Source: an uncultured Campylobacter sp. (GTDB lineage Bacteria > Campylobacterota > Campylobacteria > Campylobacterales > Campylobacteraceae). Taken from it: a stretch of DNA of 64,000 nucleotides. The position numbers and the translations under genes were made by a program. Of the stretch, positions 1 through 60,345 are shown piece after piece (the stretch's first letter is position 1; every line of letters begins with the position of its first letter). The notes below the pieces were generated by a model that saw only the letters and a list, made by a program, of their open reading frames with translations, was not told the origin of the DNA and made no database searches. Location: assembly GCF_900539505.1 (NCBI RefSeq), contig NZ_UQCL01000002.1; one strand, given 5' to 3'.

Positions 1-1782
1 ATCATCAAAATCAGCGTGCTGATGAACGCGTGGGACAAGCGTTTTTACGACGCGCTAAGCGAGCTTAAAGGCGAGCTGATCCCCGCGCTCGTGGGCGAGT
101 TTTTGCTCTACACGGCGCTCATCGTGCTTTTCATCGTCTGCGGCAGCTGGCTTCGCAAACTGCTCGTAATCGTCTGGCGCGAGCGGCTAAGCGCGATGAT
201 GGAGCGCAAATGGCTACATAACGCAAACTTCTATCGCACGAGCCTTGAGGGGAATTTCAGCGCCAGGGGCGGATCAAATTTAGAAAAACCTGGCGACGTA
301 AATTTAAACGAGCGCGCAGAGTGTTCCGCAACCGAGGCGGACAGCGCAGCTTTGCATAGAGACGTAAATGAGCTTGAAATTTTACCGAGCACGGCGGAGC
401 AAAATGCGGCAGAGCAAAGCGGCGCAAGCGAGAATGAAATTTCATCTAAAACTCGCGCAGATCGTGAAATTTCAAAAACGATCGCAAAGCTAGACAACCC
501 CGATCAGCGTATCGCCGAGGACAGCTTGCTGCTCGTGCAAAAAAGCGTCGATCTCGTAAAATCGCTCGTCTATAATCTTGCCAAGCTCATCGCCTTCGTT
601 GCGATCTTATGGCAGGTCTCGAAGGTGCTGAAATTTGAAATTTTCGGCATGCGCTTTGAGATCGAGGGTTTTTTGCTCTACGTGGCGCTCCTTTATACGC
701 TGCTTTGCTCGCTGATTACACATCTCATCGGGCGCAGGCTTAGGGGGCTAAATTTTGCCAAGCAGCGCGCCGAAGCCGACTACCGCTCGGATCTGTTGCT
801 AGTGCGCGAAAACGCAGAAGCCGTAGCCTTTATGCGCGGAGAGGATGCCGAGCGCGGCCGCTTCCGCGCGAGCTTCGGCGAGATCATTAGAAATTGGCGC
901 AGCATTATGAATACGGAATTTCGCCTCGAATGCTTTTCGGCAAGCTACCTAAAAATCACGAATTTAATCCCGATCTTTGCCTGCTTGCCGCTGTATTTGT
1001 CGCGCGCGATGAGCTTTGGCGACATGATGCAGGCGCGCTCGGCGTTTTACAGCGTGCAGGATGGATTTGCGTGGTTTATGGACTATTATAAGCAGATCAT
1101 GGAGTGGGCGGCGAGCGTGCAGAGGATCTATGAGTTCATCGCGCGCATGGATGGCGAGAGCGCAAATTTGCACGCTTGCGTCAAACAAAGCGACGAAAAT
1201 TCTGCGCGTTGCGAGGGCTTGTCGGTCTTCACGCCTGCGGGCGAGCCGCTGATCGAGGATCTACGCTTTGAGCTTGCGCCCGCGCAGTTTATAATGCTGC
1301 GAGGCAAGAGCGGCGCGGGCAAAAGCACGGCTCTGCGCTACGCGGCGGGGCTTTGGCGATACGGCCGCGGCGAGATCAGCCTGCCGCGCACGGGCGTGAT
1401 GTTTATCCCGCAAAAGCCCTATCTAGCGCCGCTTAGCCTAAAAGAGCTCATCTGCTATCCGCAGCCGCCGCGCGCAGACGACGCGGAATTTTTAGAAATT
1501 TTACGCCGCGTAGGACTTGAAAAATTTGCCCGCATGCTAAACTCACGCACCGATTACGTTAAAATTTTAAGCGGCGGAGAGGCGCAGCGGCTCAGTTTCG
1601 CACGTATTCATTACCACAAGCCGAGCTTTGTTTTTGCCGACGAGATCACGTCTGCGCTTGATTTCGCCTCGGCGCGCGAGCTACTACTGGGTCTGCGTGC
1701 GGATCTACCGAGCCTCGGCATGCTAGCGATCGTGCATCAAACGGGGCTTGAGGACATATTTGAGCGGACGATAGAGCTTTAA
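1..1782 (+). CDS. ABC transporter fused permease/ATP-binding protein (SbmA/BacA–YddA-like), 5'-partial; carries an internal low-complexity insert at about nt 259–526
   Basis: The frame is open from the first base of the window. The C-terminal ATP-binding domain has Walker A LRGKSGAGKST, ABC signature LSGGEAQRLSFARI and Walker B FVFADE. The N-terminal part is hydrophobic. An 85–90-aa N/E/S/A-rich insert is encoded by AAATTT-containing DNA. Confidence 0.8.
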   Translation: MIKISVLMNAWDKRFYDALSELKGELIPALVGEFLLYTALIVLFIVCGSWLRKLLVIVWRERLSAMMERKWLHNANFYRTSLEGNFSARGGSNLEKPGDVNLNERAECSATEADSAALHRDVNELEILPSTAEQNAAEQSGASENEISSKTRADREISKTIAKLDNPDQRIAEDSLLLVQKSVDLVKSLVYNLAKLIAFVAILWQVSKVLKFEIFGMRFEIEGFLLYVALLYTLLCSLITHLIGRRLRGLNFAKQRAEADYRSDLLLVRENAEAVAFMRGEDAERGRFRASFGEIIRNWRSIMNTEFRLECFSASYLKITNLIPIFACLPLYLSRAMSFGDMMQARSAFYSVQDGFAWFMDYYKQIMEWAASVQRIYEFIARMDGESANLHACVKQSDENSARCEGLSVFTPAGEPLIEDLRFELAPAQFIMLRGKSGAGKSTALRYAAGLWRYGRGEISLPRTGVMFIPQKPYLAPLSLKELICYPQPPRADDAEFLEILRRVGLEKFARMLNSRTDYVKILSGGEAQRLSFARIHYHKPSFVFADEITSALDFASARELLLGLRADLPSLGMLAIVHQTGLEDIFERTIEL

Positions 1783-2655
1783 ATTTCATCGTTTAAATTT
1801 CACGCTGCAGGGATTTCGCCTTTAAATTCATATCTTTTTAAATCCAGATTTATTAAAATTACTCATTTATATTAAGCGGCGATAAAATTTAGCCGAGGCG
1901 CTAAGTGTTCGCATACATGGGCTGCGGCAGCGGCGCGGCTAGGCGCTTGTACGCAGTCGGTGGCATAGCACCGCCGTAGGTAAGTATTTGCGGCGCAATT
2001 AGTAGCTCGGAAGTCGGTCAGCAGTGCGCGATCGCAGTTCTGTACGGAAATTTAAGCTGATAAAATTTAAACGCAAGATAGTCTGCTCAATGCGGGGCGT
2101 CTCGATAAAATTTTAAGCCACGCGGCGATCTGTAACGTAGCAGTGCGCCAAATGAGAAGGCTACGGCAGCGGTGCGATGCGCGAGCGTAGCGATAAATCG
2201 GTAGCGCGTCGGATGGCGTGTAACACATCAGCGGCGCAGATGGCACGCCGTAGTCGAGAAGCGGAACGGCGATACGTACCTACTCGGCACCGTATGACAT
2301 AACCTTCGCTTGGGCAAATCATCATCGTAACGGCGCTACGATCGAAGCGAACAGAACGGCCGCGACGGCGGATCGGCAGCACAAAGCGGCGCGGCGTGAT
2401 TGCGGCGGCGACAGCATAAAATGCCGCAATATGGCAACCGTGATCGACAGGATGCGTATGTAGGTAAGGCGCAGTGCAAGTAGCGCAAACAGCGATACGA
2501 TGATGGCGACCTGCGGAGTGTATAAATGAAGTAGCGGTGCGGGCGGCGCAATAACGCCGAGGCGATACGATAGCGGCGAGCGGCGAGGCGTACCGGTGCA
2601 GCAGCTTAGCGCTCGCGTGAAGTCGCTAAATTTTAAAACGAAGCAAGGAGATTTG

Positions 2656-8079: not shown

Positions 8080-8706
8080 GCGCGCGACGGCACTAAGATC
8101 TCGGCGAAATTTTACTTTAAATTTATGAAAAATTCTATCTTGGAGCCTGCGGAAAATTTTAATTCAAAACCCGCTTTAAATTTCATCTCAAATCAGACGT
8201 GCGAGCGCGCGAAAAACACAGCGCCCGGCGGTAAGGTAAATTTCGCTCCAGCTTCTCGCTTCAAAAGAAATTTCGAATTTAAAGATGCGACTGCCGAGTT
8301 AAATTTTATGAGCGTGCGAAATTTAAAATTTTATCCCGCTTCGGCCGGTTTCGCCGCGCGCAATAGTGCCTCTGTCGGTTTTGCCGTGCACAATCTCGTC
8401 GCGCTTTATTCCGCTCCGCGCGTCAGAAATATTGAAAGAAAATCCGCTTTACATTTCGCGGCTCTTGCGCTAAATTTAAAGTCCGCGCAGGATATGAGCC
8501 GCACCGAAAATAAAGCTTTAAATTCCGCAAAAGTCTCCGTAATAAATCCTTGCGAAAATTTCGCGAGAAATTTCAAACGAAATTTTATATTAAATTTTGC
8601 GGAAAATTTCACTCATAGCGGCGCAAATAGCGCGAGTCCGTTAAGTCGTGCAAGCGTCGTAGACGAGCTAAATTTAAGCCCCGCAAAAAGCCTTGCCACA
8701 GCTCAT

Positions 8707-9885
8707 ATGCGACGCTCAAAGAAAAATTTTATCGAGACCCTTGCAAATGATCCAGCCTCCGCTAGCGCGCCGCAGCCGCAGAGGTCTAACTATGGCGCCG
8801 CGCTAAGCCACGGTGCTCCGCAAAATTCTAATACTACACAGAATTTTAACTCCGCAAAAAATTTAAATTCTACGCAAAGCTCGAATTCCGCGCAGAGTTT
8901 CGGGCAAAATTCCAATTCCACGCAAAACCATGCGCAAAATCCCGTTCCGCCTAGCAGGCTGTGGGATCTGGGGCTGCTTTTCGTAGCGATCGTTTGGGGA
9001 TGCACTTTCGTGCCTGTTCAGCGCGCGCTGCATAGCGGCGACGTTTTTAGCTTTTTGTTTTGGCGCTTTTTGGCGGCGAGCATTTTTACCTACCTCGCCT
9101 GCCTGCGCTTCGGCGTCAAATTTGACCGCGGCACGATAGGGCGGGGCGTGTTTTGCGGGCTGATGCTGTTTTGCGATTTTTCCTGCCAGACCATAGCGCT
9201 TGATTATGCGCTCTCCTCGACGGTGGCGTTCATTTTGGGGCTAAACGTCGTTATCGTGCCCTTTTTGATGCTTGCGTTTTTCGGTAAAAAGGTCGGTGCG
9301 AGCGCCTTTGGCGGCGCAGTCGTGGCGCTTTTGGGGCTCTATTTTTTAAGTGGAGCAAGCGCGGTGGGATTTGGCATAGGCGAGCGGTTGACGCTCGTTT
9401 CGGCATTTGCATACGCGCTTCACATCGTATTTACCGGCGTCTGCGCGCGCAAAAGCAATCTCTACGGCTTTGTGATCGTGCAGTTTATCTGCGTTTGCGT
9501 CTGCGCGCTGATCGCGGCAGTTTTCACTCCGCATGTGCAGTTTGAAGGCGAGATAAGGGTGATTGGAAATTTAATCTTTTCGCTGAACTTTGATTTCGTT
9601 TTTGCGCTGGTTTTGACCTCGATCTTTGCCACCGTTGCGGCGTTTGTGATCCAAACAATGGCGCAAAACCGCGGCGTAAGCGAGATAAAAACGGTGCTGA
9701 TTTTCGCGCTAGAGCCCGTAAGCGCGGGCATTATGGGGTATACCTTCGGCGAGAAGCTAAGCGCGCTTCAAATTTTAGGCGCGGCGCTGATACTCGCAGG
9801 CATCCTGCTTAGCGAGCTGGGCGGGCTTTTAGGCGCGAAGTTTGCTAAAAATCGAGCTTGCGAAAAAGCAGACCGAGGCGACTAG
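8707..9885 (+). CDS. EamA/DMT family transporter. The ORF is open from the ATG at 8125, giving an optional ~195-aa N/S/Q/F-rich low-complexity N-terminal extension
   Basis: The C-terminal ~300 aa has two EamA-type repeats (LLFVAIVWGCTFVPVQ…; …LIFALEPVSAGIMGYTFGEKLS) and 10 TM helices. The upstream 8125–8706 is AAATTT-repeat DNA read in frame (NFNSAKNLNSTQSSNS…). The true start is undetermined. Confidence 0.65.
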   Translation: MRRSKKNFIETLANDPASASAPQPQRSNYGAALSHGAPQNSNTTQNFNSAKNLNSTQSSNSAQSFGQNSNSTQNHAQNPVPPSRLWDLGLLFVAIVWGCTFVPVQRALHSGDVFSFLFWRFLAASIFTYLACLRFGVKFDRGTIGRGVFCGLMLFCDFSCQTIALDYALSSTVAFILGLNVVIVPFLMLAFFGKKVGASAFGGAVVALLGLYFLSGASAVGFGIGERLTLVSAFAYALHIVFTGVCARKSNLYGFVIVQFICVCVCALIAAVFTPHVQFEGEIRVIGNLIFSLNFDFVFALVLTSIFATVAAFVIQTMAQNRGVSEIKTVLIFALEPVSAGIMGYTFGEKLSALQILGAALILAGILLSELGGLLGAKFAKNRACEKADRGD

Positions 9886-11491: not shown

Positions 11492-12400
11492 GTGGAGAAA
11501 ATCGGCGAAAAATCAGATGAAAATAGCTGGGATAAAAAGTCCGAAAGTTACGCTAAATTTAGCGGCGAGCCGGGCAGTTTCGGCAAGCGGGTGTTTGAGA
11601 TACTGCGCGGCTGGGGCGTGAGCTTTGCGGGCAAAAGCGTGCTCGACGTGGGCGCCGGCACGGGGGTTTACTCGCTTTATCTCGCGTCGCTGGGCGCTAA
11701 AGTAACGGCGATCGATAGCTCCGAGGGGATGCTGCGCGAGCTAAGGCGCAGCGCGCAGGAGTTTGGAATTCGTCTGCAAAACGTATTAAATTTAAGCTTT
11801 GCGGAGTTTTGCGAGCGGCTGAGCCGCGATGGTTTCAGGGATACGACGGGCAAAAATTTTAAAATTTATCCGCGCCCGCAGAGCGAAATTTCAAACGCGC
11901 AAGCTCAAGAAGCGCAGGCTTTAAATTTTAAAAATTCTGCGAGCAAAAGCCGCGAGAGCGAAAATTTTAAAATTCCCGCAATTTTTGATATCGCGTTTCT
12001 TACGATGAGCCCCGCGCTAAAAAGCACGGAGGATTTTGAAGCGTTTTTGGCTTTGGGCGAGCGTAAAATTTATCTAAACTGGGCGAGCGAGCGCAATTCA
12101 TCTATGCTGGCGCCGCTTTTTGAGCGCTTCGGCACGGGGCATAAAAGACTTGCTACCGCCGCCGAAAAGTTCGAGGCGCTGCTTGGGGCGCGCGACATCA
12201 AATTTAAAAGCGAAATTTTAACCGAGAGGCGCGAGCAAAAACGCAGCCTGCAAGAAGCTGTGCAAAATGCCGCGTGGCACCTGCATATGGACGGCGCGGA
12301 GGCGAGCGAGCGTGAGATCGAGGAGCTTTTGAAAAAGCGGGCTAAAGGCGGGGTGATAAGCGATGAGATCGAAGCGAGCTTTAAGCTGTTTTATATTTAG
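11492..12400 (+). CDS. class I SAM-dependent methyltransferase carrying an internal ~60-aa low-complexity insert (GTG start)
   Basis: Motif I VLDVGAGTGVYSLYLA, post-I AIDSSEGML, motif II-like IFDIAFL. Between them lies NFKIYPRPQSEISNAQAQEAQALNFKNSASKSRESENFKIP, encoded by AAATTT-repeat DNA at about 11850–11990. Confidence 0.6.
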   Translation: MEKIGEKSDENSWDKKSESYAKFSGEPGSFGKRVFEILRGWGVSFAGKSVLDVGAGTGVYSLYLASLGAKVTAIDSSEGMLRELRRSAQEFGIRLQNVLNLSFAEFCERLSRDGFRDTTGKNFKIYPRPQSEISNAQAQEAQALNFKNSASKSRESENFKIPAIFDIAFLTMSPALKSTEDFEAFLALGERKIYLNWASERNSSMLAPLFERFGTGHKRLATAAEKFEALLGARDIKFKSEILTERREQKRSLQEAVQNAAWHLHMDGAEASEREIEELLKKRAKGGVISDEIEASFKLFYI

Positions 12401-17744: not shown

Positions 17745-18692
17745 TTTCCGTCCTAGCCGTGATTTGGGCGAAATTATAATATTTTTGCGCTAAATTTCAA
17801 AATCTAAATTTCGTGCGCGAGCTAGGCTATAGAGCAAAATATGAGGCGCGGTCGGTTGGGATACGCCACAAACGCTTCCGATCAGGCTTTTTTTGCTTCG
17901 GCGGTTTACAATACCCGCTTGCACAAGCGCTCCGTAAATAGGGTTTTAAGCGTGATTGAAGCTTAGTTGATAGTCTCGCTGCGATACTGCAAATACTTAT
18001 CGCGCACCCAATCTTGCGAAATTTAAACGCAAAATTTCATCGCATAATTTGTGAGCTGCGATATTTAAATTTAAGCTTCCTTTTGCAATTTAATCGCTCG
18101 CCGCACTCAAATTTAAATCCCCGCCTCGCAATTTTAAAATGGATGTTTTGAAATTTATCGCTCGTGGCGTTTAAATTCCGCGTCTAGCGAGCCTTGAACT
18201 CATATTTGAAATTCCATCACTTGCGATGCACGCATTTGCCCATCGCACCTGTATTTTAATCCGCATTAATGAAATTCCCTCTGTCTGAAATTTTAACCTC
18301 TTCGCACAATATGGCAGTTTAAAATTTCAAATTTCTCGCTTTTTTTTGGGAGCGGCTCGACATAGATACGTAAAATTTTGATAAATTTACGCTTGCAAAA
18401 TTCTAAAAATTATATCATCGTCACGGCTAAATTGCAGATTTGTTTAAATTCTGGTTCTTAAAATTGTAGCCTGGCCGTCACGCACGATTTGCAATTCAAA
18501 GAGCCTTGCCGCGTAAATTCTAATCTCTCTGAGCCCAAAAATTGACGCCGCTTAATACATGAATTTAAACGCGTTTTGGAATTCAAAATTTAGCCCGCCT
18601 TGTTACCATTTTCGGTCGAGCTCTATAAAATTTCGGCAAATTTTATACTCGCGGAATTTTAAAATTTTATCGCCATAAAAGCCAGTAAAATT

Positions 18693-25811: not shown

Positions 25812-26424
25812 TTTATGACGCAAAATTTAGCGCTGGCGGCACGCTTTTATCGCGGAATTCTGTAGCGTGGCAAAGATTTAATTTTGCTTGCTTTTAAAAT
25901 ACGACGCTTGCTAAAAATTTTAAAATTCCGTTTTGCTGGGCGGGAGTAGAAATTTAAGAATTTTAAATTCCACTATGTCTGCGCTAAAGCGCGAAATTTT
26001 AAAATTCCACTCCTTTTTTGTGCTGTTTTGTCAAATGCAATCTCAAAATTTAATCTCATAAAATTTTAAAATTTCATCGCGAGCTTTAAAGCGCTCATAA
26101 AATTTCTCACCCAATTCTGCAGCTTTAAAATTTTGTAAAATTCTGTGGCTTTAAAATTTTGCAAAATTTTAAAAATTTTAAATTCTATCGCTAGGACGCA
26201 GATGAAAACTCTAAAAAAACTCGCGCAAAATCGAAGCAAACAATGAAAAAGCGAATTTATTTGACGACTTTACTTACTATTTAATAATCATTAAAGATAT
26301 AAAAAGCTAAAATTGCTTTTTGCCTGCGGGCGAATTTAATGTCTGCTTGCCATTCGCGCGGGATTTTGAGGTTTCCCGTAGCCGTGGCAATAGTTTTGAA
26401 ATTATTTATGAGAAAGGAAAAAGG

Positions 26425-27234
26425 ATGAAGAAATTTCTCTTAAGTCTGCTTGTCGCAGCTTTAGCTAGTAGTGCGCTTTGCGCAAGGTCGCTCTCCGAGA
26501 TCAAAAGTAGCGGAGTGCTTAGAATAGGCGTTTATGACGCGCAACCGCCGTTTAGCAAGATAGAAGACGGCGTGCATCAGGGCTTTGAGGTCGATATGGC
26601 AAATGCTATCGCTAAAGATATGCTTCCATCGGGCGGAAAGGTGGAGTTTACCTCCGTGCTTGCAAATCAGCGTATAAAATTCCTACAAGAAGATAAGGTG
26701 GACGCAGTTATCGCAACTTTTACCGTAACTCCGGAGCGCGAGAAGCAGGTAGATTTTACGACCCCGTATTTTAGCGTCAATATAGGCATTTTAACCCGCG
26801 TCGAAGATAAGATTAAATCTTTAAACGAATTGCAAGATAAAACTATTTTAGTTCTTAGCGGCGGTACTGCAGAAACATACTTTGAAAAGCAAGGCTATAA
26901 TATCGCCAGATGCGACAACGCAAACGCTTGCTATAAGGCGCTAAAAGCTGGACAGGGCGACGGGTATGCCGATGATAACCTAGTCGTGCTGGCTTATCCG
27001 GTATTAGATAAAAAGGTAGAAGTAAATATCAAAAATTTAGGTACTTCGGATTTCTTAGCCATCGGCGTGAAAAAGGGCAATTCGGAGCTTTTGGATTTTC
27101 TAAACGGCGAGCTAATCAAGCTAAGCAAAGAGGGCTTTTTCAAAAATTCGTTCGATAATTTCATCGAGCCTTACTACAAAGGAACTGCAGAGAAAAAGTA
27201 TTTCTTGCTGGACGATCTTTATAGCTTGCTGTAA
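26425..27234 (+). CDS. periplasmic solute-binding protein, amino-acid ABC type (SBP family 3; PEB1/CjaA-like), copy 1 of 4
   Basis: Signal peptide. GVLRIGVYDAQPPFS… and …DAVIATFTVTPEREKQVDFTTPYF… are characteristic of SBP_bac_3. Conserved Cys pair ARCDNANAC. RBS AAGGAAAAAGG. Confidence 0.8.
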   Translation: MKKFLLSLLVAALASSALCARSLSEIKSSGVLRIGVYDAQPPFSKIEDGVHQGFEVDMANAIAKDMLPSGGKVEFTSVLANQRIKFLQEDKVDAVIATFTVTPEREKQVDFTTPYFSVNIGILTRVEDKIKSLNELQDKTILVLSGGTAETYFEKQGYNIARCDNANACYKALKAGQGDGYADDNLVVLAYPVLDKKVEVNIKNLGTSDFLAIGVKKGNSELLDFLNGELIKLSKEGFFKNSFDNFIEPYYKGTAEKKYFLLDDLYSLL

Positions 27235-27254
27235 TTTTTAAAAAGGGGGACGCT

Positions 27255-28058
27255 ATGAAAAAGATAATCCTAGCATTGATGCTGGCTGCGTGTTCGCTTT
27301 TTAGCAACACTTTAGCTCAAATCAAAGAAAAAGGGGTTATTCGAATCGGTATAGATGGCTCGTCTCCGCCGTTTAGCGTCGCTAAAGCCGGCGAATATAG
27401 CGGGTTTGAGATACTTTTAATCGAAGGGCTTGTTAAAGAAATTTTCGGCGATAAAGGCGGCAAGATAGAATATGTCGTAACTTTGGGCGATGATCGTATA
27501 AAAGCGGTGCAGGACAACAGAGTCGATTTAGATATCGCGCTTATCTCGGTTACGAAAGAGCGTGAGAAGCTGGTAGATTTCTCCGATCCATACTTTAGCG
27601 TAAATATCGGCGTGCTAACCCGTAGCGAAGATAATATCAGAAAAGTCTCCGATCTAAACGGAAAGACTATACTAGCGCAGCCCGGCACCACCGTGTTTGA
27701 TTACTTTACGAAACAGGGCTATAACGTAGCGCCGTGCGATAGTGCAAGCGAATGCTTTAACGCTCTAAAATCGGGCAAGGGCGACGGATACGCAGACGAT
27801 AATCTGCTTGTGTTCGCTTACGCCGTAGTAGACCGCAAAGTTGAAGTAAATATTAAGAATTTAGGCTCGACGGACTTCCTAGCCATCGCGGTGCAAAAAG
27901 GTAATACTGAACTACTTAACGCGGTAAATGCGGGACTGATCAATTTAAGCAAAAAGGGCTTTTTTACAAAAATTTTTGATGAGAGTATCGAGCCTTTTTA
28001 TAAAGGTACCGTCGATAAAAAGTATTTCTTGCTGGACGATCTTTACAGCCTGTTTTAA
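27255..28058 (+). CDS. periplasmic solute-binding protein (SBP family 3), copy 2 of 4
   Basis: Paralogue of copy 1 and highly similar to copy 3. Cys pair APCDSASEC. Motif GKGDGYADDN. Confidence 0.8.
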   Translation: MKKIILALMLAACSLFSNTLAQIKEKGVIRIGIDGSSPPFSVAKAGEYSGFEILLIEGLVKEIFGDKGGKIEYVVTLGDDRIKAVQDNRVDLDIALISVTKEREKLVDFSDPYFSVNIGVLTRSEDNIRKVSDLNGKTILAQPGTTVFDYFTKQGYNVAPCDSASECFNALKSGKGDGYADDNLLVFAYAVVDRKVEVNIKNLGSTDFLAIAVQKGNTELLNAVNAGLINLSKKGFFTKIFDESIEPFYKGTVDKKYFLLDDLYSLF

Positions 28059-28123
28059 TTTAAAATGGCGATGGATGGAATTCTATTCGCTGGCAAAATT
28101 TTAGTAAAATTTAAAGGAATTTT

Positions 28124-28927
28124 ATGAAAAAGATTATATTTACGTTGTTAATCGCTTCGTGTTCGTTATTTGCCAACTCTTTAGCGCAGATCAAAGAAAA
28201 AGGGCTCATTCGCATTGGGGTAGACGGCTCACTGCCGCCACTTAGCGTCTCTGAGGACGGAAGATATAGCGGTTTTGAAATTTCGCTTATCGAAGAGCTC
28301 GTGAAAGAAATTTTCGGCGATAAGGGCGGCAAAATCGAATATGTCGTAACTCTAGGCAATGATCGTATCACAGCCGTGCAAGATAACAAGGTCGATTTGG
28401 ATATCGCGGCGATTACGGTTACGAAAGAGCGCGAGAAACTAGTGGATTTTTCAAACCCTTACTTTAGCGTAAATATCGGCGTACTAACCCGTAGCGATGA
28501 CAATATCAAGACAATAAGCGACCTGCAGGATAAAGAAATTTTAGCAGAGCCCGGCACTACGGCTTTTGATTATTTTAATAAGGAAGGCTTTAAAGTTATC
28601 TCATGCGCCAGTTCGAGCGAATGCTTCCGCGCGCTAAAATCCGGTCGCGGCAGCGGCTATGCAGACGATAATATGGTAGTTTTGGGTTATTCGGTTGTAG
28701 ATCGCAAGGTAGAGGTAAATATCAAGAATTTAGGTACGTCGGACTTTTTAGCTATCGCGGTGCAAAAAGGCAACGATGACTTGCTAAACGCCTTAAACGA
28801 CGGGCTTGTCAAGCTCAGCAAAAATGGCTTTTTCAAGAAAATTTTTAACGACAGCATCGATCCTTTTTACAAGGGAAAGGCTGAGAAAAAATATTTCTTG
28901 TTAGATGATCTTTATAAAATGTTTTAA
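28124..28927 (+). CDS. periplasmic solute-binding protein (SBP family 3), copy 3 of 4
   Basis: Paralogue. Cys pair ISCASSSEC. Motif GRGSGYADDN. Confidence 0.8.
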   Translation: MKKIIFTLLIASCSLFANSLAQIKEKGLIRIGVDGSLPPLSVSEDGRYSGFEISLIEELVKEIFGDKGGKIEYVVTLGNDRITAVQDNKVDLDIAAITVTKEREKLVDFSNPYFSVNIGVLTRSDDNIKTISDLQDKEILAEPGTTAFDYFNKEGFKVISCASSSECFRALKSGRGSGYADDNMVVLGYSVVDRKVEVNIKNLGTSDFLAIAVQKGNDDLLNALNDGLVKLSKNGFFKKIFNDSIDPFYKGKAEKKYFLLDDLYKMF

Positions 28928-28942
28928 TTCAAAGGACAAAAT

Positions 28943-29746
28943 ATGAAAAAAATTCTACTAAGTATTTTGCTGGGTGCTGGCGCGCTTTGCGCTAATTCCC
29001 TAGCAGATATCAAGCAAGCAGGCGAAATTCGCATAGGCTTGCAAGATTCCCAGCCTCCGTTTAGCTTCGATGATAACGGCACGCTAAAGGGCTTTGAGGT
29101 TGATTTGGCAAATGAGTTAGTCAAAAATCTATTTGGCAATAAAAAGATCAAAATCGACTTTATCGCCGTAGCATCTAAAGATCGCGTTCCTTCACTGGAG
29201 CAAAACAAAGTAGATCTCATCATATCCAAGCTTACCGTCACAAAAGATCGCGTTCAGAAAGTCGATTTTTCTTACCCGTATTATTCAGTGCAAATTGGCG
29301 TGCTAAGCCGCAAGGACGATAATATTTCAAGAATCGATCAGATCGCGCATAAAAAAATTCTAAGCGTTAAGGGCACAACTGCCGAGGAGCACTTCAAAAA
29401 CGCGGGCTATGAGATTGCGACATGTACCGACGCGAATGAGTGCGTCGCTAGGCTAAAGGCTGGCGAGGGCATAGGCTTTGCCGACGATAATACGGTCGTA
29501 CTCGGATACGCTAGAAACGATGCCGCGCTTGATGCAAAAATCATCAACCTTGGCAAGGTAGATTATATCGCCGTCGCCCTATCTAAGGGCAATACCGAGC
29601 TGCTTGATGCGGTCAATAGCAGCCTGGTAAAAATGTATAAAGCGAAATTTTTCCATAAGGCTTTTGACGAGGATATCAAGCCATACTACGGCGGCAAGAT
29701 CGATAAAAAGCACTTCACGCTCGATGAGGTTTATAGCCTGTTTTAG
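28943..29746 (+). CDS. periplasmic solute-binding protein (SBP family 3), copy 4 of 4 (most divergent)
   Basis: Paralogue. Cys pair ATCTDANEC. Motif GEGIGFADDN. Confidence 0.8.
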   Translation: MKKILLSILLGAGALCANSLADIKQAGEIRIGLQDSQPPFSFDDNGTLKGFEVDLANELVKNLFGNKKIKIDFIAVASKDRVPSLEQNKVDLIISKLTVTKDRVQKVDFSYPYYSVQIGVLSRKDDNISRIDQIAHKKILSVKGTTAEEHFKNAGYEIATCTDANECVARLKAGEGIGFADDNTVVLGYARNDAALDAKIINLGKVDYIAVALSKGNTELLDAVNSSLVKMYKAKFFHKAFDEDIKPYYGGKIDKKHFTLDEVYSLF

Positions 29747-35323: not shown

Positions 35324-35439
35324 ATTTTCCCCTTTGCGTTTTAAAATTTTAAGTCGTAGCAGCGCGGTTAAATTTAGCCGCTAAATTCCGCCACGCGGTC
35401 GGAGCGCGGCGCTTAAGCGGCAAAATTTTAACTCTGCAA

Positions 35440-35560
35440 ATTTAGCTATTGCGGAAATTTGCTCGCGAGATTTTGCTATTGCAAAATTTGCTCTCGCAAA
35501 ATTTAACTATCGCAAATTCTGCCCTCGCAAAATTTAATGCTCGCAGCGCGCGGCGTTAAA
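35440..35560. repeat. degenerate ~25-bp tandem repeats in a long intergenic region
   Basis: …ATTGCGGAAATTTGCTCGCGAG / ATTTTGCTATTGCAAAATTTGCTCTCGC / AAAATTTAACTATCGCAAATTCTGCCCTCGC / AAAATTTAATGCTCGCAGCGC. Confidence 0.4.
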
Positions 35561-35962
35561 TTTTAAAATTCTAACTCGCATCAAAATAAGCGGTAAATTT
35601 TACTGCCGTTGGAACCTGCGTCTAAATTTAAAATTTCAATTTGCGCCGAAGCGAGAGATAAATTTAATCGCCGTCGCCGTTCGCGTATAAATTTTAAAAT
35701 TTAGCTCGCGCAAATCTTAGTCTGTACGGAATTTTAGCCCGCGCCAATTTAACCTGCGCAAAATTTATCCGCGCAGAATTTTGGTCGCGCCACTACGTTA
35801 AATTTCGCCGTAGCTTCCTAGCGTTAAATTTTGCTACCGAGCGACAAATTTGCCGTTGCCGCCGAGCGATAAAATTTACCGCCGCGAGAACCTTGCTGCC
35901 AAATTTATCGCCAAGAGCCGCCGCCCTAAAATTTCTCAAATTTTATAAAATTCGCCGCGCCG

Positions 35963-37147
35963 CTAATGCGCATCCTCGATGTAGTGCCCTACAAATTTTG
36001 AGAGATTATTGAGTATCTCGCCGCCCTTGCGGAAGCCCAGCGCGCAGCCTTCATAGGCGAAAAATACCCCCGCTTGGTAGTTCTGGGCGCGCTCGTCTTT
36101 GTTGAGCTCATAAAATTCCTGATATAAAAATTTCTGATTTCCGTATTCGCCGCCGTTTTCCTCTATCTTTTTGCCGTCCGCGTCGAAGATCGCCACGTTC
36201 GCTCCCTCGCGCGCCAAAAACGGCTTTTTGATCATCTTTTTACCGATGATCGGCGAAAAGGAGCTTTGTATCAGCAGCGGGTGGTTCGGATAGAGATCCC
36301 ACAGGATTTTCATAATCCCCTTGCTTTGAAAAAGCAACGTGTATGCGGGATTTAGGATGATCGCCTTTTGATTTTGCACGATGTTTTTTAAGATGAGCGC
36401 AAGCTCGCCCTCCTCGATCGCGATCGCCTCCCAAGGGATGAGCTTGAACCAATACTCGTAGTTTTCGCCGTCAAAAAACACGCCCTCTTCGTCGTTAAAT
36501 TCCACCTCGTTCACGTAGGCAAAGCGCGTCTTAAAGCCCGCATCCTCCGCGGTCTGCTGCAAAAGCTTCGTCGTCTTTTCGTCCTCGACGTTGCCCGCGA
36601 CGCTGCTAAATAGAATTTTCCACCCCTCGTAAAATTTAGAAAAATCCTCCAGCTCGCCGTCAAGCACCACGAGCCGCTTGAAATTATCGCGCAGCGCGTC
36701 GTAGAGGTCGTTGAACTGGCTCGCCTCGTCCATGCCGTTTTTTTTGAGCATCGCCCACTGGATGATCGCGGTCTCAAACACCGCCGTAGGCGTGTCGGCG
36801 TTAAATTCTATCAGCTTGATTGGCTTGCCGTCCAGCCCGCCTGCGAAATCAAAGCGCCCGTATAGGTGCCAGTGCACCTCGTTTTCCCAGCTTTGCTTGA
36901 TTAGATCGACGAGGTTGAAGGGGATGCCTAGCTCGTGGAAGAGGTTATTGTCGATGACGTGCTGCGCAGCTGCGACAAACATCTCGTATAGCTCGTTTGC
37001 GGCCTTATAATACGCATCCGCCTCCGCAGCGCTCACGCGCACAATCTCGTCGCTGACGTAAGGGGTCTCGTCTGCGTCCGTGTGCCAGTAAAAGCCGAGC
37101 TTTTCGAGATACTCGTTGCTTAACGGCGTTATCTTTTTTAGTTGCAT
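35963..37147 (-). CDS. glutathionylspermidine synthase family protein (YgiC/YjfC-like ATP-grasp amidoligase)
   Basis: 394 aa. GSP-synthase pre-ATP-grasp pattern (…LYGRFDFAGGLDGKPIKLIEFNADTPT…). Lies next to a UPF0323 lipoprotein gene, as in Cj0371/Cj0372. Confidence 0.7.
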   Translation of the reverse strand: MQLKKITPLSNEYLEKLGFYWHTDADETPYVSDEIVRVSAAEADAYYKAANELYEMFVAAAQHVIDNNLFHELGIPFNLVDLIKQSWENEVHWHLYGRFDFAGGLDGKPIKLIEFNADTPTAVFETAIIQWAMLKKNGMDEASQFNDLYDALRDNFKRLVVLDGELEDFSKFYEGWKILFSSVAGNVEDEKTTKLLQQTAEDAGFKTRFAYVNEVEFNDEEGVFFDGENYEYWFKLIPWEAIAIEEGELALILKNIVQNQKAIILNPAYTLLFQSKGIMKILWDLYPNHPLLIQSSFSPIIGKKMIKKPFLAREGANVAIFDADGKKIEENGGEYGNQKFLYQEFYELNKDERAQNYQAGVFFAYEGCALGFRKGGEILNNLSKFVGHYIEDAH

Positions 37148-42073: not shown

Positions 42074-42180
42074 TATTTCATCCTTTATTTCTACCTATAT
42101 CGACGATCTCGACAAAATTTTAGCCATCTTTTCTTTATACTTAATTTTATATTTATAATTTCACAAATTTAATACCTTTA

Positions 42181-42546: not shown

Positions 42547-42581
42547 TTTATTATCCTTTATATATGTTTTAACCGCGATAC

Positions 42582-43064: not shown

Positions 43065-43242
43065 ATCAAAATCCTATTTTTTGTTTTTTACTGCCTAATT
43101 TAATTTGAATGCTCTATCGTTCGAGCCTAAATCATATTTACCCCATTCTTTTATGACATCTTGAGCTATACTTTTTACGCGGAATTCCTGCCCTACTAAA
43201 ATAAGCATCTATTTTCTCCATAATTCTATTAAATCATCATAT

Positions 43243-44945: not shown

Positions 44946-44974
44946 TTTTATATTCCTCTATAACAAATCAAATT

Positions 44975-57399: not shown

Positions 57400-58088
57400 T
57401 GCTAAAAATTTCAAATTTGCGCTACGAAATTCTGCGCGACGTTATAATTTCCGATTTTTCGCTGCGGCTGCGCGCGGGCGAAGTAAAGACGCTTTTTGGC
57501 CCCAGCGGCTGCGGCAAGACCTCGCTTTTGCGGCTGGTCTGCGGGCTGGAGGATAAAAAAAGCGGGCAGATCGAAAACGGCTTTAAGAAAATCAGCTTTT
57601 TGTTTCAAGAAAACCGCCTGCTGCCGAACCTCACGGCACTTAAAAATATCGAAATTTTTAGCCCTGCGGGCGTGAGTGAAATTTACGCCCTTGCCGCGAA
57701 GATCGGGCTAAGCCCGAGCGATCTGAATAAATTCCCGCGCGAGCTAAGCGGCGGCATGCAAAAGCGCACGGCGTTTTTGCGCACGATCCTTAGCGGCTGC
57801 GATCTGGCGCTGCTTGATGAGCCATTTGTAGGTCTGGATCGCGATCTGCGCGGCGCGCTGATCGAAATTTTAGTCTCAAAGATCGAGCGCGAGGGGCTTG
57901 CCTGCCTTTTGGTGACCCACGACCGCTTCGAAGCCGCACGCCTAAGCCACGAGATCATCGAGCTTGAGCCCAAAGGGATGGGGCTTAGACGCGTCGTGAG
58001 GCTGGATGAGCCGCTAAGCGCGCGCGACGAGCGGTACGAAGAGCGCGTGGTAAGCGAGCAGTTTGGGGGAGTAAGCTATTATGAATAG
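57396..58088 (+). CDS. ABC transporter ATP-binding protein (NitT/TauT family)
   Basis: Walker A GPSGCGKTS, signature LSGGMQKRTAF, Walker B LLDEP. ATG at 57396; the listed GTG at 57387 lies inside the permease gene. Confidence 0.8.
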   Translation: MMLKISNLRYEILRDVIISDFSLRLRAGEVKTLFGPSGCGKTSLLRLVCGLEDKKSGQIENGFKKISFLFQENRLLPNLTALKNIEIFSPAGVSEIYALAAKIGLSPSDLNKFPRELSGGMQKRTAFLRTILSGCDLALLDEPFVGLDRDLRGALIEILVSKIEREGLACLLVTHDRFEAARLSHEIIELEPKGMGLRRVVRLDEPLSARDERYEERVVSEQFGGVSYYE

Positions 58089-58159
58089 AAATTTTATCTT
58101 TAATGCGCGCAAACAGGGAGGTTCCGCACGAAATTTGAACTTACGTTGCGGCTCAGACG

Positions 58160-58340
58160 CGAGCAAGCGGGACTTTGGCGCACAGCGTGTTCTGGGCGCG
58201 TACGGATGCGGGTATTTGTCGGGCGCTAGATGCGACGATCTGGGCATACGCAGACACGGGCTCTTACGAAGTACTAGATGCCGCGATTTCGGCGCGGGCA
58301 GACACAGGCTCTTGCAGGACACCGGGCGCCGTGGTTTTGC
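58160..58340. repeat. three degenerate ~48-bp tandem repeats (GC-rich)
   Basis: Units GCGCGTACGGATGCGGGTATTTGTCGGGCGCTAGATGCGACGATCTGG / GCATACGCAGACACGGGCTCTTACGAAGTACTAGATGCCGCGATTTCG / GCGCGGGCAGACACAGGCTCTTGCAGGACACCGGGCGCCGTGGTTTTG. Confidence 0.5.
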
Positions 58341-58599
58341 CGTACCGAAATACGAACTGCGCAGCCATGCGAACTGCGATTATAGTGCGAGCGTGCTCTT
58401 GAATGGCGCAGTGTGCTGCGGTTTTGTAGCACAAAATTCGACGAAATTTAGCAGCGATACATACTGCGGCTCTAGCGCGGGCGCTTGTTTACAGCGCGTA
58501 TCCGATCGCCCTGCTCGTGCCGCCTGCCCGCATTGCAGATTTGGTACGAACCCAGACGCCCGTCTGCGTTGTGGATTTGGCGCAGATTATTTTAAAAAT

Positions 58600-59124
58600 T
58601 CAGGCGGAATTCCTACGCGAAATTTTAAAATTTACGCTCTCGATTTCGCACGGAATTTTAAAGATTTTACACGGAGCTTGGAAGCCGCACCCGCGCAAAA
58701 TTTCAAAATTTCCGATCTAAATTTTACGCGAAATTTTAAAAATTCAGCTCGCAATTCGGACGCCGAGCCAGTGCAAAGCTTTAAAAATCCAAATTTCGCA
58801 CATGATTTCTTGCAAAGCGCTAAAAGCTACGATCAAAATTCCACTCATGGCTTCTCACAAAGCGGCAGAAGCGCCGAGCCAAATTCCGAGGCGAGTTTTT
58901 CGCAGAGCATTAAAAATTCCGAACGGAATTTCTCGTTAAGCTTCTTACAAAGCGCCAAGAATTCCGATCAAAGTCAAAATTTCAAATCCAGTTTCGCGCA
59001 AAGCTTTAAAAATCAAAATTTCGCGTGGGATTTCTCACAAAACGGCAGAAGCGCCGAGCCAAATTCTGTTCAAAACTTCTCGCAAAGCACTAAAAATTCC
59101 GATCGGAATTTTAAGGCTAATTCC
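58600..59124. repeat. AAATTT/AAAATTC-rich repeat tract containing two ~180-bp imperfect tandem units
   Basis: TTCTCACAAAGCGGCAGAAGCGCCGAGCCAAATTC… at about 58850 recurs at about 59030. AAAGCTTTAAAAATC(C/A)AAATTTCGC occurs twice. Confidence 0.5.
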
Positions 59125-60345
59125 ATGCAAAATCAAGTAGAGCCCGTTTCGTTGCAGGAGTTCAAAAATCCGAAGCCGTGCCCGGCGCAGAAGCAAGGGC
59201 TGGGCTTTTACGCGCCTAAATTTAAAGATGAGCGCGCTAGGAATTTTTTCTCCCATCCGATGCGCGCTTTCGTTCTTTGCGCCTGCTTTTTTGCGGCGCT
59301 GGGCGCGCTTAGTTTTTTAGCGCCCGATGCGCTGGCGATCGATTATGTCGCCGCTCATAAGTTTTACTTTCTGTTTTTGGCGCCTTCGTGCATCTACGCG
59401 GCGTTTTTGCTTACCGCGCTGCCCGATTGGACGAACTTCGAGGGCTCGCTAAAGCCCGTCTCGCTCGCCTTTGCCGCCTGCCTGATCGCAGCTTTTATCG
59501 CGAGCTTTTTAAATTTACGGCTTGCGGCTGCGATCACGGCGCTGTTTTGGGCGGTATTTTTCATCTTTGCGGCGCGGCTTTTGTGGCTGGATAAAAACTC
59601 GAATAATTTTAGCATCCTGGCAGTCCTTGCGGCGTTTTGCGCCTGCTCTGCGGCCTATGGCGCGAGCGGGGATGAGAAGTTTTTGCTTAGCTTCGTGCAT
59701 ATCAACGTCGCGGCAATCGCCGTCGTAAGCTACCGCATAAGCGTCGTCATCGGCAACGAAGCGCTAAGAGAGGCGGGGCTGAAGGACGCCGTTTTTATTC
59801 CAAATTTTATCTACAAAAATTTAGCCGCTTTCCTCGCCTTCGCTTTGGCGCTCGCGACGCCATTTTTAAGCGAGGCGACGTGCGGATTTATCGCGCTTGG
59901 CATCGGGTTTTTGTTTTTGGCAAAACTTCGCGAGCTACACTACGTCGAAATTCTAAGCCGTCACTATATGGCGTTTTACTACGCGTTGCAGGCTGCGTGC
60001 GCGGCGGGCTATGCGTGGCTGGGTTGGGAGCTGATCCGCGGGGGATACGCTGCTGCACCGCTGCACGTCATCGCGATCTGCTATATGTATGGAGCGATAC
60101 TTTTCGTAGGAATGATCGCCGGACAGCGCCACAGCGGAATTTCGCCGCTAAACTTCCCGCGCCTAAGCCGCGCGGCGCTCGTTTTGGCTCTGCTCGCGGG
60201 AGGTTTAAGAGCCGTTTTTGCGGGCGAGAGCTTTGTTTTATACGTGATGATCCCCTCGGCGCTTTTCATCGCCGCGGTCGCGCTATATCTGATAAATTTC
60301 ATCCCGATCTTTCTGAAAAATCCTTTCAGCGCGGATCCGGATTGA
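59125..60345 (+). CDS. NnrS-like haem/copper membrane protein. The ORF is also open from the ATG at 58081, which overlaps the ABC ATPase stop
   Basis: The C-terminal ~400 aa is polytopic (…SHPMRAFVLCACFFAALGAL…, 10–12 TM), similar to the NnrS N-terminal pattern GFRPFFL.AAL. The 348 codons upstream are translated repeat DNA. The true start is undetermined. Confidence 0.5.
   Translation: MQNQVEPVSLQEFKNPKPCPAQKQGLGFYAPKFKDERARNFFSHPMRAFVLCACFFAALGALSFLAPDALAIDYVAAHKFYFLFLAPSCIYAAFLLTALPDWTNFEGSLKPVSLAFAACLIAAFIASFLNLRLAAAITALFWAVFFIFAARLLWLDKNSNNFSILAVLAAFCACSAAYGASGDEKFLLSFVHINVAAIAVVSYRISVVIGNEALREAGLKDAVFIPNFIYKNLAAFLAFALALATPFLSEATCGFIALGIGFLFLAKLRELHYVEILSRHYMAFYYALQAACAAGYAWLGWELIRGGYAAAPLHVIAICYMYGAILFVGMIAGQRHSGISPLNFPRLSRAALVLALLAGGLRAVFAGESFVLYVMIPSALFIAAVALYLINFIPIFLKNPFSADPD

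Follow-up and report, generated by a model that had tools for sequence, protein, structure and literature searches.

Extra peptides and over-represented words in described systems

Compactness is the rule among bacterial proteins, and a long peptide stretch free of constraint is generally expected to be lost quickly. Low-complexity, Asn-rich insertions are found in the proteins of Plasmodium falciparum, and in Ehrlichia ruminantium the expansion of spacers is driven by tandem repeats. The palindromic elements of Rickettsia (RPEs) add an extra peptide, with the frame preserved, to housekeeping genes that are unrelated to one another, at sites that tolerate it; the proteins remain functional, and the same DNA also occurs between genes; they are discrete elements of about 150 bp, forming families with a conserved consensus, encoded peptide and palindromic structure (PMC10969869).

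The DNA analysed here, a 64-kb stretch (the window) of a Campylobacter genome with about 47% GC, has the palindromic hexamer AAATTT as its most frequent six-letter word. Campylobacter jejuni, a member of the same genus, has a genome of about 1.64 Mb. Its orphan methyltransferase CtsM, whose family is described in PMC4752239, methylates RAATTY, and the methylated site is needed for uptake in natural transformation (PMC10046745; bioRxiv 10.1101/2024.09.10.611283). PMC4294202 gives 27,514 RAATTY strand-sites, which over a genome of that length amounts to about 8.4 sites per kb, compared with 10.8 per kb in our sequence, where AAATTT is itself an RAATTY site.

Two other families of words are comparable. 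The uptake sequences USS and DUS are hugely over-represented in coding and non-coding DNA, favour poorly conserved protein regions and particular frames, and raise the frequency of the peptides they encode (Findlay and Redfield, PMC2817400). The cyanobacterial palindrome HIP1 (GCGATCGC) is over-represented clade-wide in genes and spacers; it has been associated with a methyltransferase site, and a part in transformation or recombination has been proposed for it (bioRxiv 10.1101/2024.09.10.611283). AAATTT shares with uptake sequences an excess beyond both composition and codon usage, in genes and spacers, and with HIP1 its standing as a clade-wide palindromic top hexamer in coding and non-coding DNA. 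USS and DUS, however, are non-palindromic words of 9-12 nt present about once per kb, whereas AAATTT is a 6-nt palindrome at 7.4 per kb; long hypervariable inserts are unreported for USS, and an uptake role for AAATTT is here that of a candidate. HIP1 differs in sequence, length and clade, is about 10-fold sparser than AAATTT, and to our knowledge has no link to hypervariable coding inserts. Our literature search found no description of AAATTT-rich coding segments in Campylobacter, nor in papers on the genome and methylation of C. gracilis.

Abundance and context of AAATTT

In the window AAATTT occurs 472 times against 21.7 copies expected at zero order, a 22-fold excess over base composition, and against 95 and 111 expected under first- and second-order Markov models, 4-5 times the di- and trinucleotide expectation; no other A3T3 permutation exceeds 176 copies. 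Density is 19.6 per kb outside ORFs and 5.0 per kb inside them, in agreement with the original prediction that the motif is genome-wide. Shuffling of synonymous codons gives 77 +/- 6.7 copies, vs 243 observed (z = 25, a 3.1-fold excess). No hexamer is more frequent than AAATTT in the C. gracilis-like window, in the C. showae-group loci or in the C. concisus loci; it occurs there at a near-constant 7.4-7.8 per kb across the three lineages and a GC range of 38-47%, and its density per kb barely changes with local GC content. The AAATTT load is a genus-level property, reaching about 20 per kb wherever sequence is unconstrained.

Little sequence beyond the hexamer is shared. A longer consensus, sought through +/-15-nt profiles, repeat families and 12-mer flanks, yielded only a weak preference for T at -2 and for A at +7. 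There are 21 copies of a 12-mer palindrome, AATTTTAAAATT, and two of the inserts described below are among their sites; R stands just upstream of it in all 21 copies and Y just downstream in 19, and its flanks hold no conserved sequence. Repeat families in the window are 24-44 nt long and 61-80% identical, with cores of the AAATTTTAAAATTT type. Intergenic DNA also contains tandem arrays of AAATTT plus spacer, with periods of 8-31 nt, and the densest intergenic cluster (24 copies; 35344..35998, unstranded) includes arrays of period 15/31 (AAATTTGCTATCGCA). A DNA-curvature phasing model is unsupported, in that the spacing of AAATTT has no 10-11 bp helical periodicity and peaks only locally, at 7-8 and 24-26 nt.

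Several features are consistent with a driver related to that of C. jejuni. Substitutions at AAATTT sites favour variants that are still RAATTY: each outer position has undergone a transition at 14 sites, which yields GAATTT or AAATTC, vs 4, 6, 6 and 1 sites for the inner four (binomial p = 7e-5). The R and Y that flank the 12-mer point the same way. Only AAATTT is strongly enriched over synonymous shuffles, with AAATTC and GAATTT at about 1.8-fold and GAATTC at 0.9-fold; GAATTC is depleted in the sister lineages. Such AAATTT-specific enrichment is therefore a poor fit to a site at which R and Y are equivalent. Purifying selection specific to the motif was considered and dropped: AAATTT sites are 2.6-fold less polymorphic than average unconstrained hexamers, but other A/T-only hexamers are equally conserved (0.047 for AAATTT vs 0.052, p = 0.76). 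Specific to AAATTT sites is only the excess of outer-position transitions. A scan for (D/N)PP(Y/F/W) found no CtsM-type (D12) methyltransferase in the window or the fetched loci, which are a small part of the genome; its matches, in a few loci, were to unrelated restriction-modification-type genes only. By analogy, the leading candidate for the driver of AAATTT enrichment would be the RAATTY methylation and DNA-uptake system known in C. jejuni, and the enrichment may be kept up by a DNA-level process tied to RAATTY, whether an uptake-sequence-like drive or selection.

Extra in-frame segments in four genes

The window opens inside the gene of an SbmA/BacA-like ABC transporter that combines permease and ATPase, of which it contains the last 593 codons (1..1782, plus strand; Pfam ABC_membrane_2, SbmA_BacA and ABC_tran); the full-length protein, P0001 (629 aa), is 100% identical to the part in the window. 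The original prediction placed a repeat-derived segment at 259-526 of this gene. The segment is real, but its variable part lies at 247..492 (plus strand), and position 526 falls about 35 nt into the conserved motif DNPDQRIAED. This 246-nt stretch, bounded by the conserved anchors NANFYRTSL and DNPDQRIAED, occupies the TM2-TM3 loop and is missing from all homologues. Searches with the ABC and methyltransferase proteins returned more than 120 conspecific variants and no distant orthologues, and distant comparisons were made with a representative library together with genome and metagenome loci. At the insert site about 4 residues are all that is present in 150 family representatives and in the orthologues of the C. 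showae group and C. concisus, which gives a net insertion of 78 aa (234 nt); the insert is also a gap relative to the structure 6tqe (PDB) and to the Pfam profile. It contains 5 AAATTT (20 per kb) vs 7 in the remaining 1536 nt of the gene (4.6 per kb; Poisson P ~0.006).

Among 50 strains the ABC insert occurs as five alleles of 246, 258, 387, 525 and 537 nt, each in frame, and full loss is seen in none of them. The 537-nt allele has 7 AAATTT, so that the long alleles are less dense. The 12-nt indel is flanked by two AAATTTA repeats, and a deletion in one strain (L027) by two AAATTTAAACGA repeats. Nucleotide diversity at codon positions 1, 2 and 3 is 0.082, 0.060 and 0.093 in the insert vs 0.027, 0.014 and 0.106 in the rest of the gene, which is under purifying selection. 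In the AlphaFold model, pLDDT is below 50 over residues 110-205 and is 24-45 across the insert vs 75-90 elsewhere, with the insert set between helices 62-109 and 203-242; the insert is thus predicted to be disordered.

Immediately downstream of the ABC gene is an intergenic spacer (1783..2595, unstranded) with GC-rich stretches and AAATTT words. Its anchor-to-anchor distance ranges from 308 to 1121 nt, with 26 distinct lengths in 43 strains, and its length differences fall 7/11/8 over the three classes modulo 3. The DNA and the indels of spacers are of the same kind as those in the extra coding segments.

The second case is a class I SAM-dependent methyltransferase gene (11492..12400, plus strand), whose Pfam match (Methyltransf_25/11) is limited to residues 50-104, the first half of the profile. 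Alignment with the C. showae-group orthologues L059, L066, L055 and L077 identifies about 55 extra residues within 11783..11974 (plus strand), downstream of the post-I region and ahead of the (F/Y)D(I/V)AF strand of motif II. This segment, which had been put at about 140 bp in 11850-11990, is genuine; it holds 6 AAATTT (31 per kb) and two copies of AATTTTAAAATT. Conspecific methyltransferases are 302-304 aa long, and L022 has 2 additional residues in this region.

In the third gene, the extra sequence is an N-terminal extension of an EamA transporter: 278 low-complexity residues (834 nt; 8125..8958, plus strand) precede the conserved domain (8959..9885, plus strand), and the Pfam EamA match begins at ORF residue 279. 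The segment of 580 bp first proposed, 8125-8706, was rightly seen to be in frame; it is longer than that and is a real extension of the N-terminus. Fifteen of its 16 AAATTT are in the frame that reads N-F or N-L; the peptides raised by AAATTT in this DNA are NF, NL, KF and EI[LS]. The frame is open in 9/9 strains, with no stop in frame vs 3-21 stops in each of the other five frames, and all eight indel events are multiples of 3. Indels of 6, 30 and 48 nt are tandem duplications. Diversity at the three codon positions is 0.136, 0.177 and 0.178 in the extension vs 0.021, 0.014 and 0.119 in the domain. The start, MKNSI, is conserved and has no recognisable Shine-Dalgarno sequence.

A fourth case, absent from the earlier list, is the membrane protein NnrS. 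A low-complexity extension of 388 aa (58081..59244, plus strand) precedes its conserved domain (59245..60345, plus strand; PF05940, E = 7e-36), and the Pfam match covers only residues 389-746. In 28 strains the extension measures 450-2091 nt (150-697 aa), in 27 distinct lengths including that of the window, all of them multiples of 3. This is a 4.6-fold range within one species that never falls below 150 aa. Every one of the 28 begins with M(N/S)RNFIF, and the frame is kept in 28/29 assemblies, the exception being a frameshifted metagenomic contig (L112). A search of the longest allele with TRF returned nothing above threshold. The N/F/K/S/Q-rich composition originally proposed for the segments holds for three of them, in the methyltransferase, EamA and NnrS, whereas that of the ABC transporter is E/A/S/N-rich.

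That the EamA and NnrS extensions are stretches of untranslated intergenic DNA, open by chance and called as ORFs in error, is extremely improbable. Their composition is odd and free of Pfam matches, the EamA start lacks a clear ribosome-binding site, and a conserved internal Met lies 16 aa ahead of the NnrS domain, all of which such an artefact would explain. Against this, the frame stays open in nearly all of the independent assemblies noted above despite many multiple-of-3 indels, with a chance probability of ~1e-4 for EamA and ~4e-13 for NnrS, whereas true intergenic DNA nearby has indels of any length. In addition, the DNA around the beginning of the EamA domain has no in-frame ATG, GTG or TTG, and the sole upstream Met (nt 8707) is unconserved. 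Conservation of the frame thus points to translation of the segments.

Origin and maintenance of the segments

Orthologue alignments support the reading of the segments as lineage-specific insertions and extensions rather than ancestral linkers. All three segments initially proposed, in the ABC, methyltransferase and EamA genes, proved to be extra, in-frame and stop-free; the ABC and methyltransferase segments are lacking in the C. showae group, and the ABC segment also in C. concisus. The expected length polymorphism among strains was likewise found, in frame, for ABC, EamA and NnrS. At least 4 of about 55 genes in the window carry such sequence, at 11-31 AAATTT per kb vs about 5 per kb in ordinary coding DNA; as had been supposed, the motif of the intergenic DNA recurs in the segments, and at intergenic-level density. 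Taken together, these segments are probably a translated, in-frame and hypervariable "coding filler" that occupies permissive places in the genes of an oral, C. gracilis-like organism. Selection is visible on its reading frame only. Although probably translated, the filler appears to be nearly unconstrained, because it has no codon-position signal, has an intergenic-level AAATTT density and lies beside a spacer whose length varies without restriction.

The original prediction also likened the segments to a mobile mini-element or a short repeat with dispersed copies. An RPE- or MITE-type element, small and mobile or selfish, that inserted in frame and also populated the spacers would account for stop-free in-frame insertions at permissive sites of four unrelated ORFs (ABC, methyltransferase, EamA and NnrS), for similar motif-rich DNA between genes and for the 21 copies of the 12-mer palindrome. 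This explanation nevertheless appears very unlikely. RPEs and MITEs have a conserved consensus of tens to ~150 nt, and none was found in the 64 kb and related loci searched; the longest common sequence is 6-12 nt, and conservation does not extend into the DNA on either side of the 12-mer. Comparison of the inserts with each other and with the rest of the window gave nothing significant, the ABC insert having chance-level short matches only, and the long ABC allele contains no significant internal repeat at the DNA or protein level. Nor does the ABC insert have terminal inverted repeats or a stable hairpin: its internal inverted pairs are only 12 nt long, and its predicted fold (-69.3 kcal/mol) is no stabler than those of shuffled sequences (-64.4 +/- 4.1; z = -1.19). 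The inserts belong to no Rfam family and give no RNA structure signal. Finally, alleles differ by local duplications and deletions, in a continuous series of strain lengths, and not by presence or absence of a unit. The supposed repeat is thereby reduced to a hexamer and a 12-mer shared among segments that have no defined ends.

The coding filler was instead seen to grow and shrink by short tandem duplications and by deletions between nearby direct repeats. Many of the duplicated or deleted units contain AAATTT, closely spaced copies of which may provide substrates for slippage or microhomology and so make the DNA prone to indels. A C. showae-group orthologue carries an independent AAATTT-dense insert (29-32 per kb) with a 15-nt in-frame indel. 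AAATTT does not lie at every indel junction, as had been considered: it is missing from the junctions of several EamA indels, which simply duplicate GC-rich units in tandem. Within ORFs only stop-free, multiple-of-3 indels are seen, since the domain can be reached only from a start that lies upstream of the filler. The reading frame is thereby locked, and the amino-acid sequence is left to drift almost neutrally. The host genes are otherwise conserved and encode inner-membrane proteins and an enzyme; filler occupies permissive places in them, in the transporter between TM2 and TM3, in a loop of the methyltransferase's Rossmann fold and at the N-termini of EamA and NnrS. As in slippage-derived inserts generally, compositional bias, predicted disorder, loop or terminal position, in-frame duplications and deletions, and flat diversity over codon positions are all found here. 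The resemblance extends to P. falciparum and E. ruminantium, where low-complexity inserts confined to a lineage sit in loops of conserved proteins, a genome-wide nucleotide bias underlies slippage or duplication, and spacers are of strain-variable length. The bias in those organisms involves overall AT-richness or longer units, whereas here it involves one palindromic hexamer at about 47% GC. A phase-variable contingency locus was also considered and is not indicated, the frame being kept in 5/5 ABC alleles, 8/8 EamA events and 28/29 NnrS assemblies.

It could be that the segments instead function as intrinsically disordered linkers or tails and are under selection as part of the protein, for example as spacers, tethers or regulatory tails of membrane proteins, with AAATTT arising as a by-product of codon choice. 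The segments are kept in every strain examined (ABC at least 246 nt in 50/50; NnrS at least 150 aa), frame and start codons are conserved, the ABC insert is predicted to be disordered and the host genes are under purifying selection. We regard this explanation as rather doubtful, however, since diversity is equal over codon positions and is at least as high as the synonymous diversity of the adjoining domains, NnrS length varies 4.6-fold in one species, sister-species orthologues work without the segments, and AAATTT density matches the intergenic and not the coding level. Of the earlier proposal that the segments are tolerated or even selected inside proteins, tolerance in frame stands, whereas the equal diversity at the three codon positions argues against protein-level selection. 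The retention of the ABC insert in all 50 strains and of an NnrS extension of at least 150 aa may still leave room for a role of the peptide.

Selection could also act on the DNA itself. In this scheme the segments would form a platform that raises local AAATTT/RAATTY density in the service of uptake, of regulation that depends on methylation or of nucleoid structure, with the peptide tolerated as a side effect. Such a platform would agree with the density of the segments relative to ordinary coding DNA, with the 3.1-fold excess over synonymous shuffles, with the near-constant AAATTT per kb over local GC and three lineages, and with AAATTT sites in the filler that are 2-3-fold less variable than neighbouring bases. 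It seems unlikely, given that other A/T-only hexamers are equally conserved, that the long ABC alleles are less dense (7 AAATTT in 537 nt), that spacing shows no helical or other periodicity, and that extra intragenic sites seem unnecessary where intergenic DNA offers dense sites at intervals of a few hundred bp.

Coding filler that is driven by duplication and is not mobile therefore remains the probable joint reading, with AAATTT enrichment supplied by a putative DNA-level driver. A broader proposal can be put forward only tentatively, and we hold it to be possible but improbable as a whole: a genus-wide palindrome linked to uptake or methylation would act as a molecular drive, saturating unconstrained DNA and seeding self-expanding arrays that invade permissive gene sites, and would thereby create an undescribed class of frame-locked, translated, sequence-neutral segments with several-fold length variation within species. 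If this were true, de novo peptide sequence would be born from a DNA-level signal.

With coding filler, nature provides a setting in which to study the amount of "junk" peptide that a membrane protein can bear and the birth of new disordered protein sequence from spacer-like DNA. A further question it makes accessible is whether the RAATTY/AAATTT site, by which Campylobacter recognises its own DNA in transformation, can shape proteomes far more strongly than classical uptake sequences do. The hypervariable segments would serve as sensitive strain-typing markers for oral Campylobacter. Filler also affects gene callers, orthology pipelines and the splitting of species based on MAGs: through the insert alleles alone, identity of the ABC gene comes out at 84-87% instead of ~96%.

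In-frame segments and their homologues

The SbmA/BacA-like ABC transporter gene (1-1782, + strand) contains a variable segment at 247-492, which in alignment lies between FYRT and DNPDQRIAED. The Pfam match to the ABC membrane domain is broken in two, and the alignment to a solved relative, Rv1819c (6tqe), runs up to FYRT and resumes at residue 220. Of the 150 best representatives in a library of 1.8 billion proteins, almost all show an offset of ~45-90 residues at this point. Every aligned homologue, including a 60%-identical C. showae-group protein and that of C. concisus, passes directly from (F/H)Y(R/H)... to DNPDQRIAED, with about 4 residues at the site versus 82 in the window's protein. 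The segment, missing from all of them, is an insertion rather than an ancestral linker. The original prediction had placed it at 259-526; the segment is real, but that end overshoots into conserved NPDQR.

A public protein from “uncultured Campylobacter sp.” matches the transporter at 100% identity, and over 120 conspecific variants match it at 95-97%; the loci encoding the transporter include a metagenome-assembled genome labelled Campylobacter gracilis (95%). C. showae-group genomes and C. concisus come next in similarity (58-60% each). Among 50 conspecific sequences the segment displays the strain length polymorphism that had been proposed as a check, with alleles of 246 nt (17 sequences), 258 (24), 387 (1), 525 (4) and 537 (4), all multiples of three. 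These alleles alone account for the 84-87% “identity” of some loci to the gene. The 12-nt indel has an AAATTTA repeat on either side; a deletion between a pair of AAATTTAAACGA repeats accounts for the 387-nt allele. At codon positions 1/2/3, pi is 0.082/0.060/0.093 in the insert versus 0.027/0.014/0.106 across the remainder of the gene, which is under constraint, unlike the insert. In the AlphaFold model, pLDDT is 75-90 except at residues 110-205 (24-45, coil), which sit between helices 62-109 and 203-242, and by analogy with type IV ABC exporters the insert would occupy the cytoplasmic TM2-TM3 loop. Its RNA stability is nothing unusual (z = -1.2).

The C. showae-group orthologue (loci L051-L066, e.g. 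L052 and L057) is without the TM2-TM3 insert and carries an extra stretch of its own, ~30 aa long, in the linker that joins the membrane domain to the ATPase domain (flanked by WAASVER(V/I)Y.. and FTP(S/N)..). This stretch, which is independent of the window's insert, contains 5-6 AAATTT in 174-189 nt and a polymorphic 15-nt in-frame indel equal to one more AAATTT-plus-spacer unit.

The methyltransferase (11492-12400) has ~55 extra residues, located between the end of the post-I region and the (F/Y)D(I/V)AF strand, relative to C. showae-group orthologues, which show partly conserved synteny and 29-32% identity (mafft; open frames of 250 codons, ~233 aligned residues). The extra residues lie somewhere in 11783-11974, a region that includes six AAATTT and two copies of the 12-mer AATTTTAAAATT. 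Conspecific proteins are 302 aa long, apart from one of 304 aa; in one strain the insert has 2 further residues.

The EamA Pfam domain (8959-9885) begins at ORF residue 279, downstream of an 834-nt extension (8125-8958) that is open in nine strains, with 0 stops in frame versus 3-21 per frame in the other five. The strains show eight distinct indel events of 3-90 nt, every one a multiple of three; seven lie inside the extension and the 3-nt event inside the domain. A chance-open spacer is ruled out by the open frame together with these indels. The start, MKNSI, is common to 9/9 strains; near the domain there is no canonical in-frame start, and the sole other upstream Met is unconserved. Values of pi at codon positions 1/2/3 are 0.136/0.177/0.178 in the extension and 0.021/0.014/0.119 in the domain. 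Judged from these sequences, the extension presumably must be read through, and what it encodes would hardly matter. In one conspecific locus (L045, ~17937-18440), the frame stays open ~490 nt further upstream, into the preceding gene, which may reflect gene fusion or loss of an upstream stop; the extension in this strain is also shortened by ~74 aa through an in-frame deletion.

In-frame, repeat-rich segments within genes are thus confirmed, and a fourth case extends them: the NnrS gene (58081-60345), in which 388 low-complexity residues precede the Pfam domain (residues 389-746). Across 28 metagenomic alleles with a common start, M(N/S)RNFIF, the start-to-domain distance is 450-2091 nt, and the 27 distinct lengths, the window's included, are all multiples of three. 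Locus L112 (848-2168) is the only one of 29 alleles with conserved start and domain in different frames, owing to a frameshift or to misassembly of this low-coverage metagenomic contig.

Intergenic counterparts and segment turnover

The spacer 3′ of the ABC gene (1783-2595) served as a control: across 43 strains its anchors are 308-1121 nt apart, and the 26 distinct lengths fall into modulo-3 classes of 7/11/8. Given this spread and the multiples of three in genes, the same indel-prone DNA behaves as untranslated sequence would between genes and as translated sequence would within them. The spacer also contains long GC-rich stretches and a 155-codon minus-strand open frame (2161-2625) with an atypical codon-position GC pattern, which may be either a decayed gene or pure filler.

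In EamA, three indels (6, 30 and 48 nt) duplicate adjoining sequence in tandem; junction homology is not obvious for others. The clearest untranslated case of AAATTT-plus-spacer unit duplication is a 640-bp spacer (35344-35998) with 24 AAATTT, where the motif is more tightly clustered than anywhere else in the window; it contains tandem arrays of AAATTTGCTATCGCA (e.g. 35438-35545, period 15/31). In the four genic segments AAATTT reaches the intergenic level, 11-31/kb, and most copies lie in the frame reading N-F or N-L, hence the N/F/K/S-rich composition originally described; the ABC insert departs from it, being E/A/S/N-rich. The best-supported reading is that of frame-locked, near-neutral, duplication-driven filler carrying the genome's iterated palindrome. 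A literature search found no description of such AAATTT filler.

The AAATTT word and its possible maintenance

AAATTT occurs 472 times in the 64 kb, against 21.7, 95 and 111 expected from base composition, dinucleotides and trinucleotides; the remaining 19 A3T3 permutations have 10-176 copies each. Its flanks are nearly uninformative (T at -2 in 46% of copies, A at +7 in 53%), and repeat finders return only short “families”, 61-80% identical, around AAATTTTAAAATTT-like cores and a handful of small tandem AAATTT-plus-spacer arrays (periods 8-31 nt). The repeated unit is therefore the word, not an element. The ABC insert has no terminal inverted repeats and no significant similarity to itself or elsewhere in the window. 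A mobile mini-element or dispersed repeat, as first proposed, was rejected, since no element-like consensus, terminal inverted repeats or similarity was found in the 64 kb and the related loci searched; on this evidence the segments lack the defining features of the RPE/MITE class.

Density is 19.6/kb outside ORFs versus 5.0/kb inside, and roughly constant along the window regardless of local GC (5-11/kb; 21-43 per 4-kb block). Within genes, AAATTT exceeds synonymous-codon shuffles 3.1-fold (243 vs 77 +/- 6.7, z = 25), AAATTC and GAATTT are enriched ~1.8-fold, and GAATTC is not enriched. AAATTT is the top hexamer in the window (7.4/kb, 47% GC), C. showae-group loci (7.8/kb, 45.5%) and C. concisus loci (7.7/kb, 37.7%); its abundance is a property of the clade. 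GAATTC is depleted in the same AAATTT-enriched sister loci (L056-L077, L068-L074), with 10 observed versus 33-46 expected in the C. showae group and 4 versus 29-32 in C. concisus, which suggests EcoRI-like restriction pressure or non-equivalent RAATTY variants.

Throughout, the driver of AAATTT is something that we infer. AAATTT is a RAATTY site. In C. jejuni the orphan enzyme CtsM methylates RAATTY, and cells undergoing transformation take up only methylated DNA (PMC10046745; bioRxiv 10.1101/2024.09.10.611283). RAATTY orphan methyltransferases form a conserved family (PMC4752239), and one C. jejuni report gives 27,514 RAATTY strand-sites (PMC4294202). The window contains 692 sites, or 10.8/kb. 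For C. jejuni, a genome size that we take to be ~1.64 Mb yields ~8.4 sites/kb. In unconstrained DNA (50 + 33 conspecific loci pooled), pi is 0.023-0.076 at AAATTT positions versus 0.084-0.165 at other bases. Variants cluster as transitions at the two outer positions (14 and 14 sites vs 4, 6, 6 and 1 at inner ones; p = 7e-5), yielding GAATTT or AAATTC, still RAATTY. Against this link, other A/T-only hexamers are conserved equally, and GAATTC is unenriched in the window and depleted in sister lineages. No CtsM-like gene was found within the window and compared loci, a small fraction of the genome. Membership of the segments in the uptake-sequence/RAATTY class is plausible. Uptake sequences, which accumulate in poorly conserved protein parts (PMC2817400), are the closest conceptual precedent, and cyanobacterial HIP1 is the closest “iterated palindrome”.

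The 12-mer palindrome AATTTTAAAATT has 21 copies in the window versus ~0.1 expected. Three are within genes (11855-11866, 11963-11974 and 58621-58632) and 18 are intergenic (e.g. 3144, 15905, 15928, 15970, 16027, 22648, 35559 and 60765). Its 5′ neighbor is R in 21/21 copies and its 3′ neighbor Y in 19/21, so that each such copy amounts to a pair of RAATTY sites spaced by 8 bp. The C. showae-group loci (115 kb) have a single copy and the C. concisus loci (87 kb) have none, which marks the 12-mer as an iterated palindrome specific to this lineage.

Other features of the window

Within the window (GC ~47%), a low-GC block at 42000-47000 (34-35% GC) with short ORFs adjoins a tRNA (46576-46648, - strand) and looks like an integrated island; AAATTT is still present there at 7-8/kb. 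An Rfam match to the HPnc0260 antisense RNA (46464-46611, + strand; 65 bits, just over threshold) overlaps the oppositely oriented tRNA. At 26311-29746, four tandem paralogous ORFs of ~270-305 aa, with DNA stretches 70-77% identical (repeat families D2, D4 and D18), probably represent duplicated binding-protein genes clustered in a region of lower GC.
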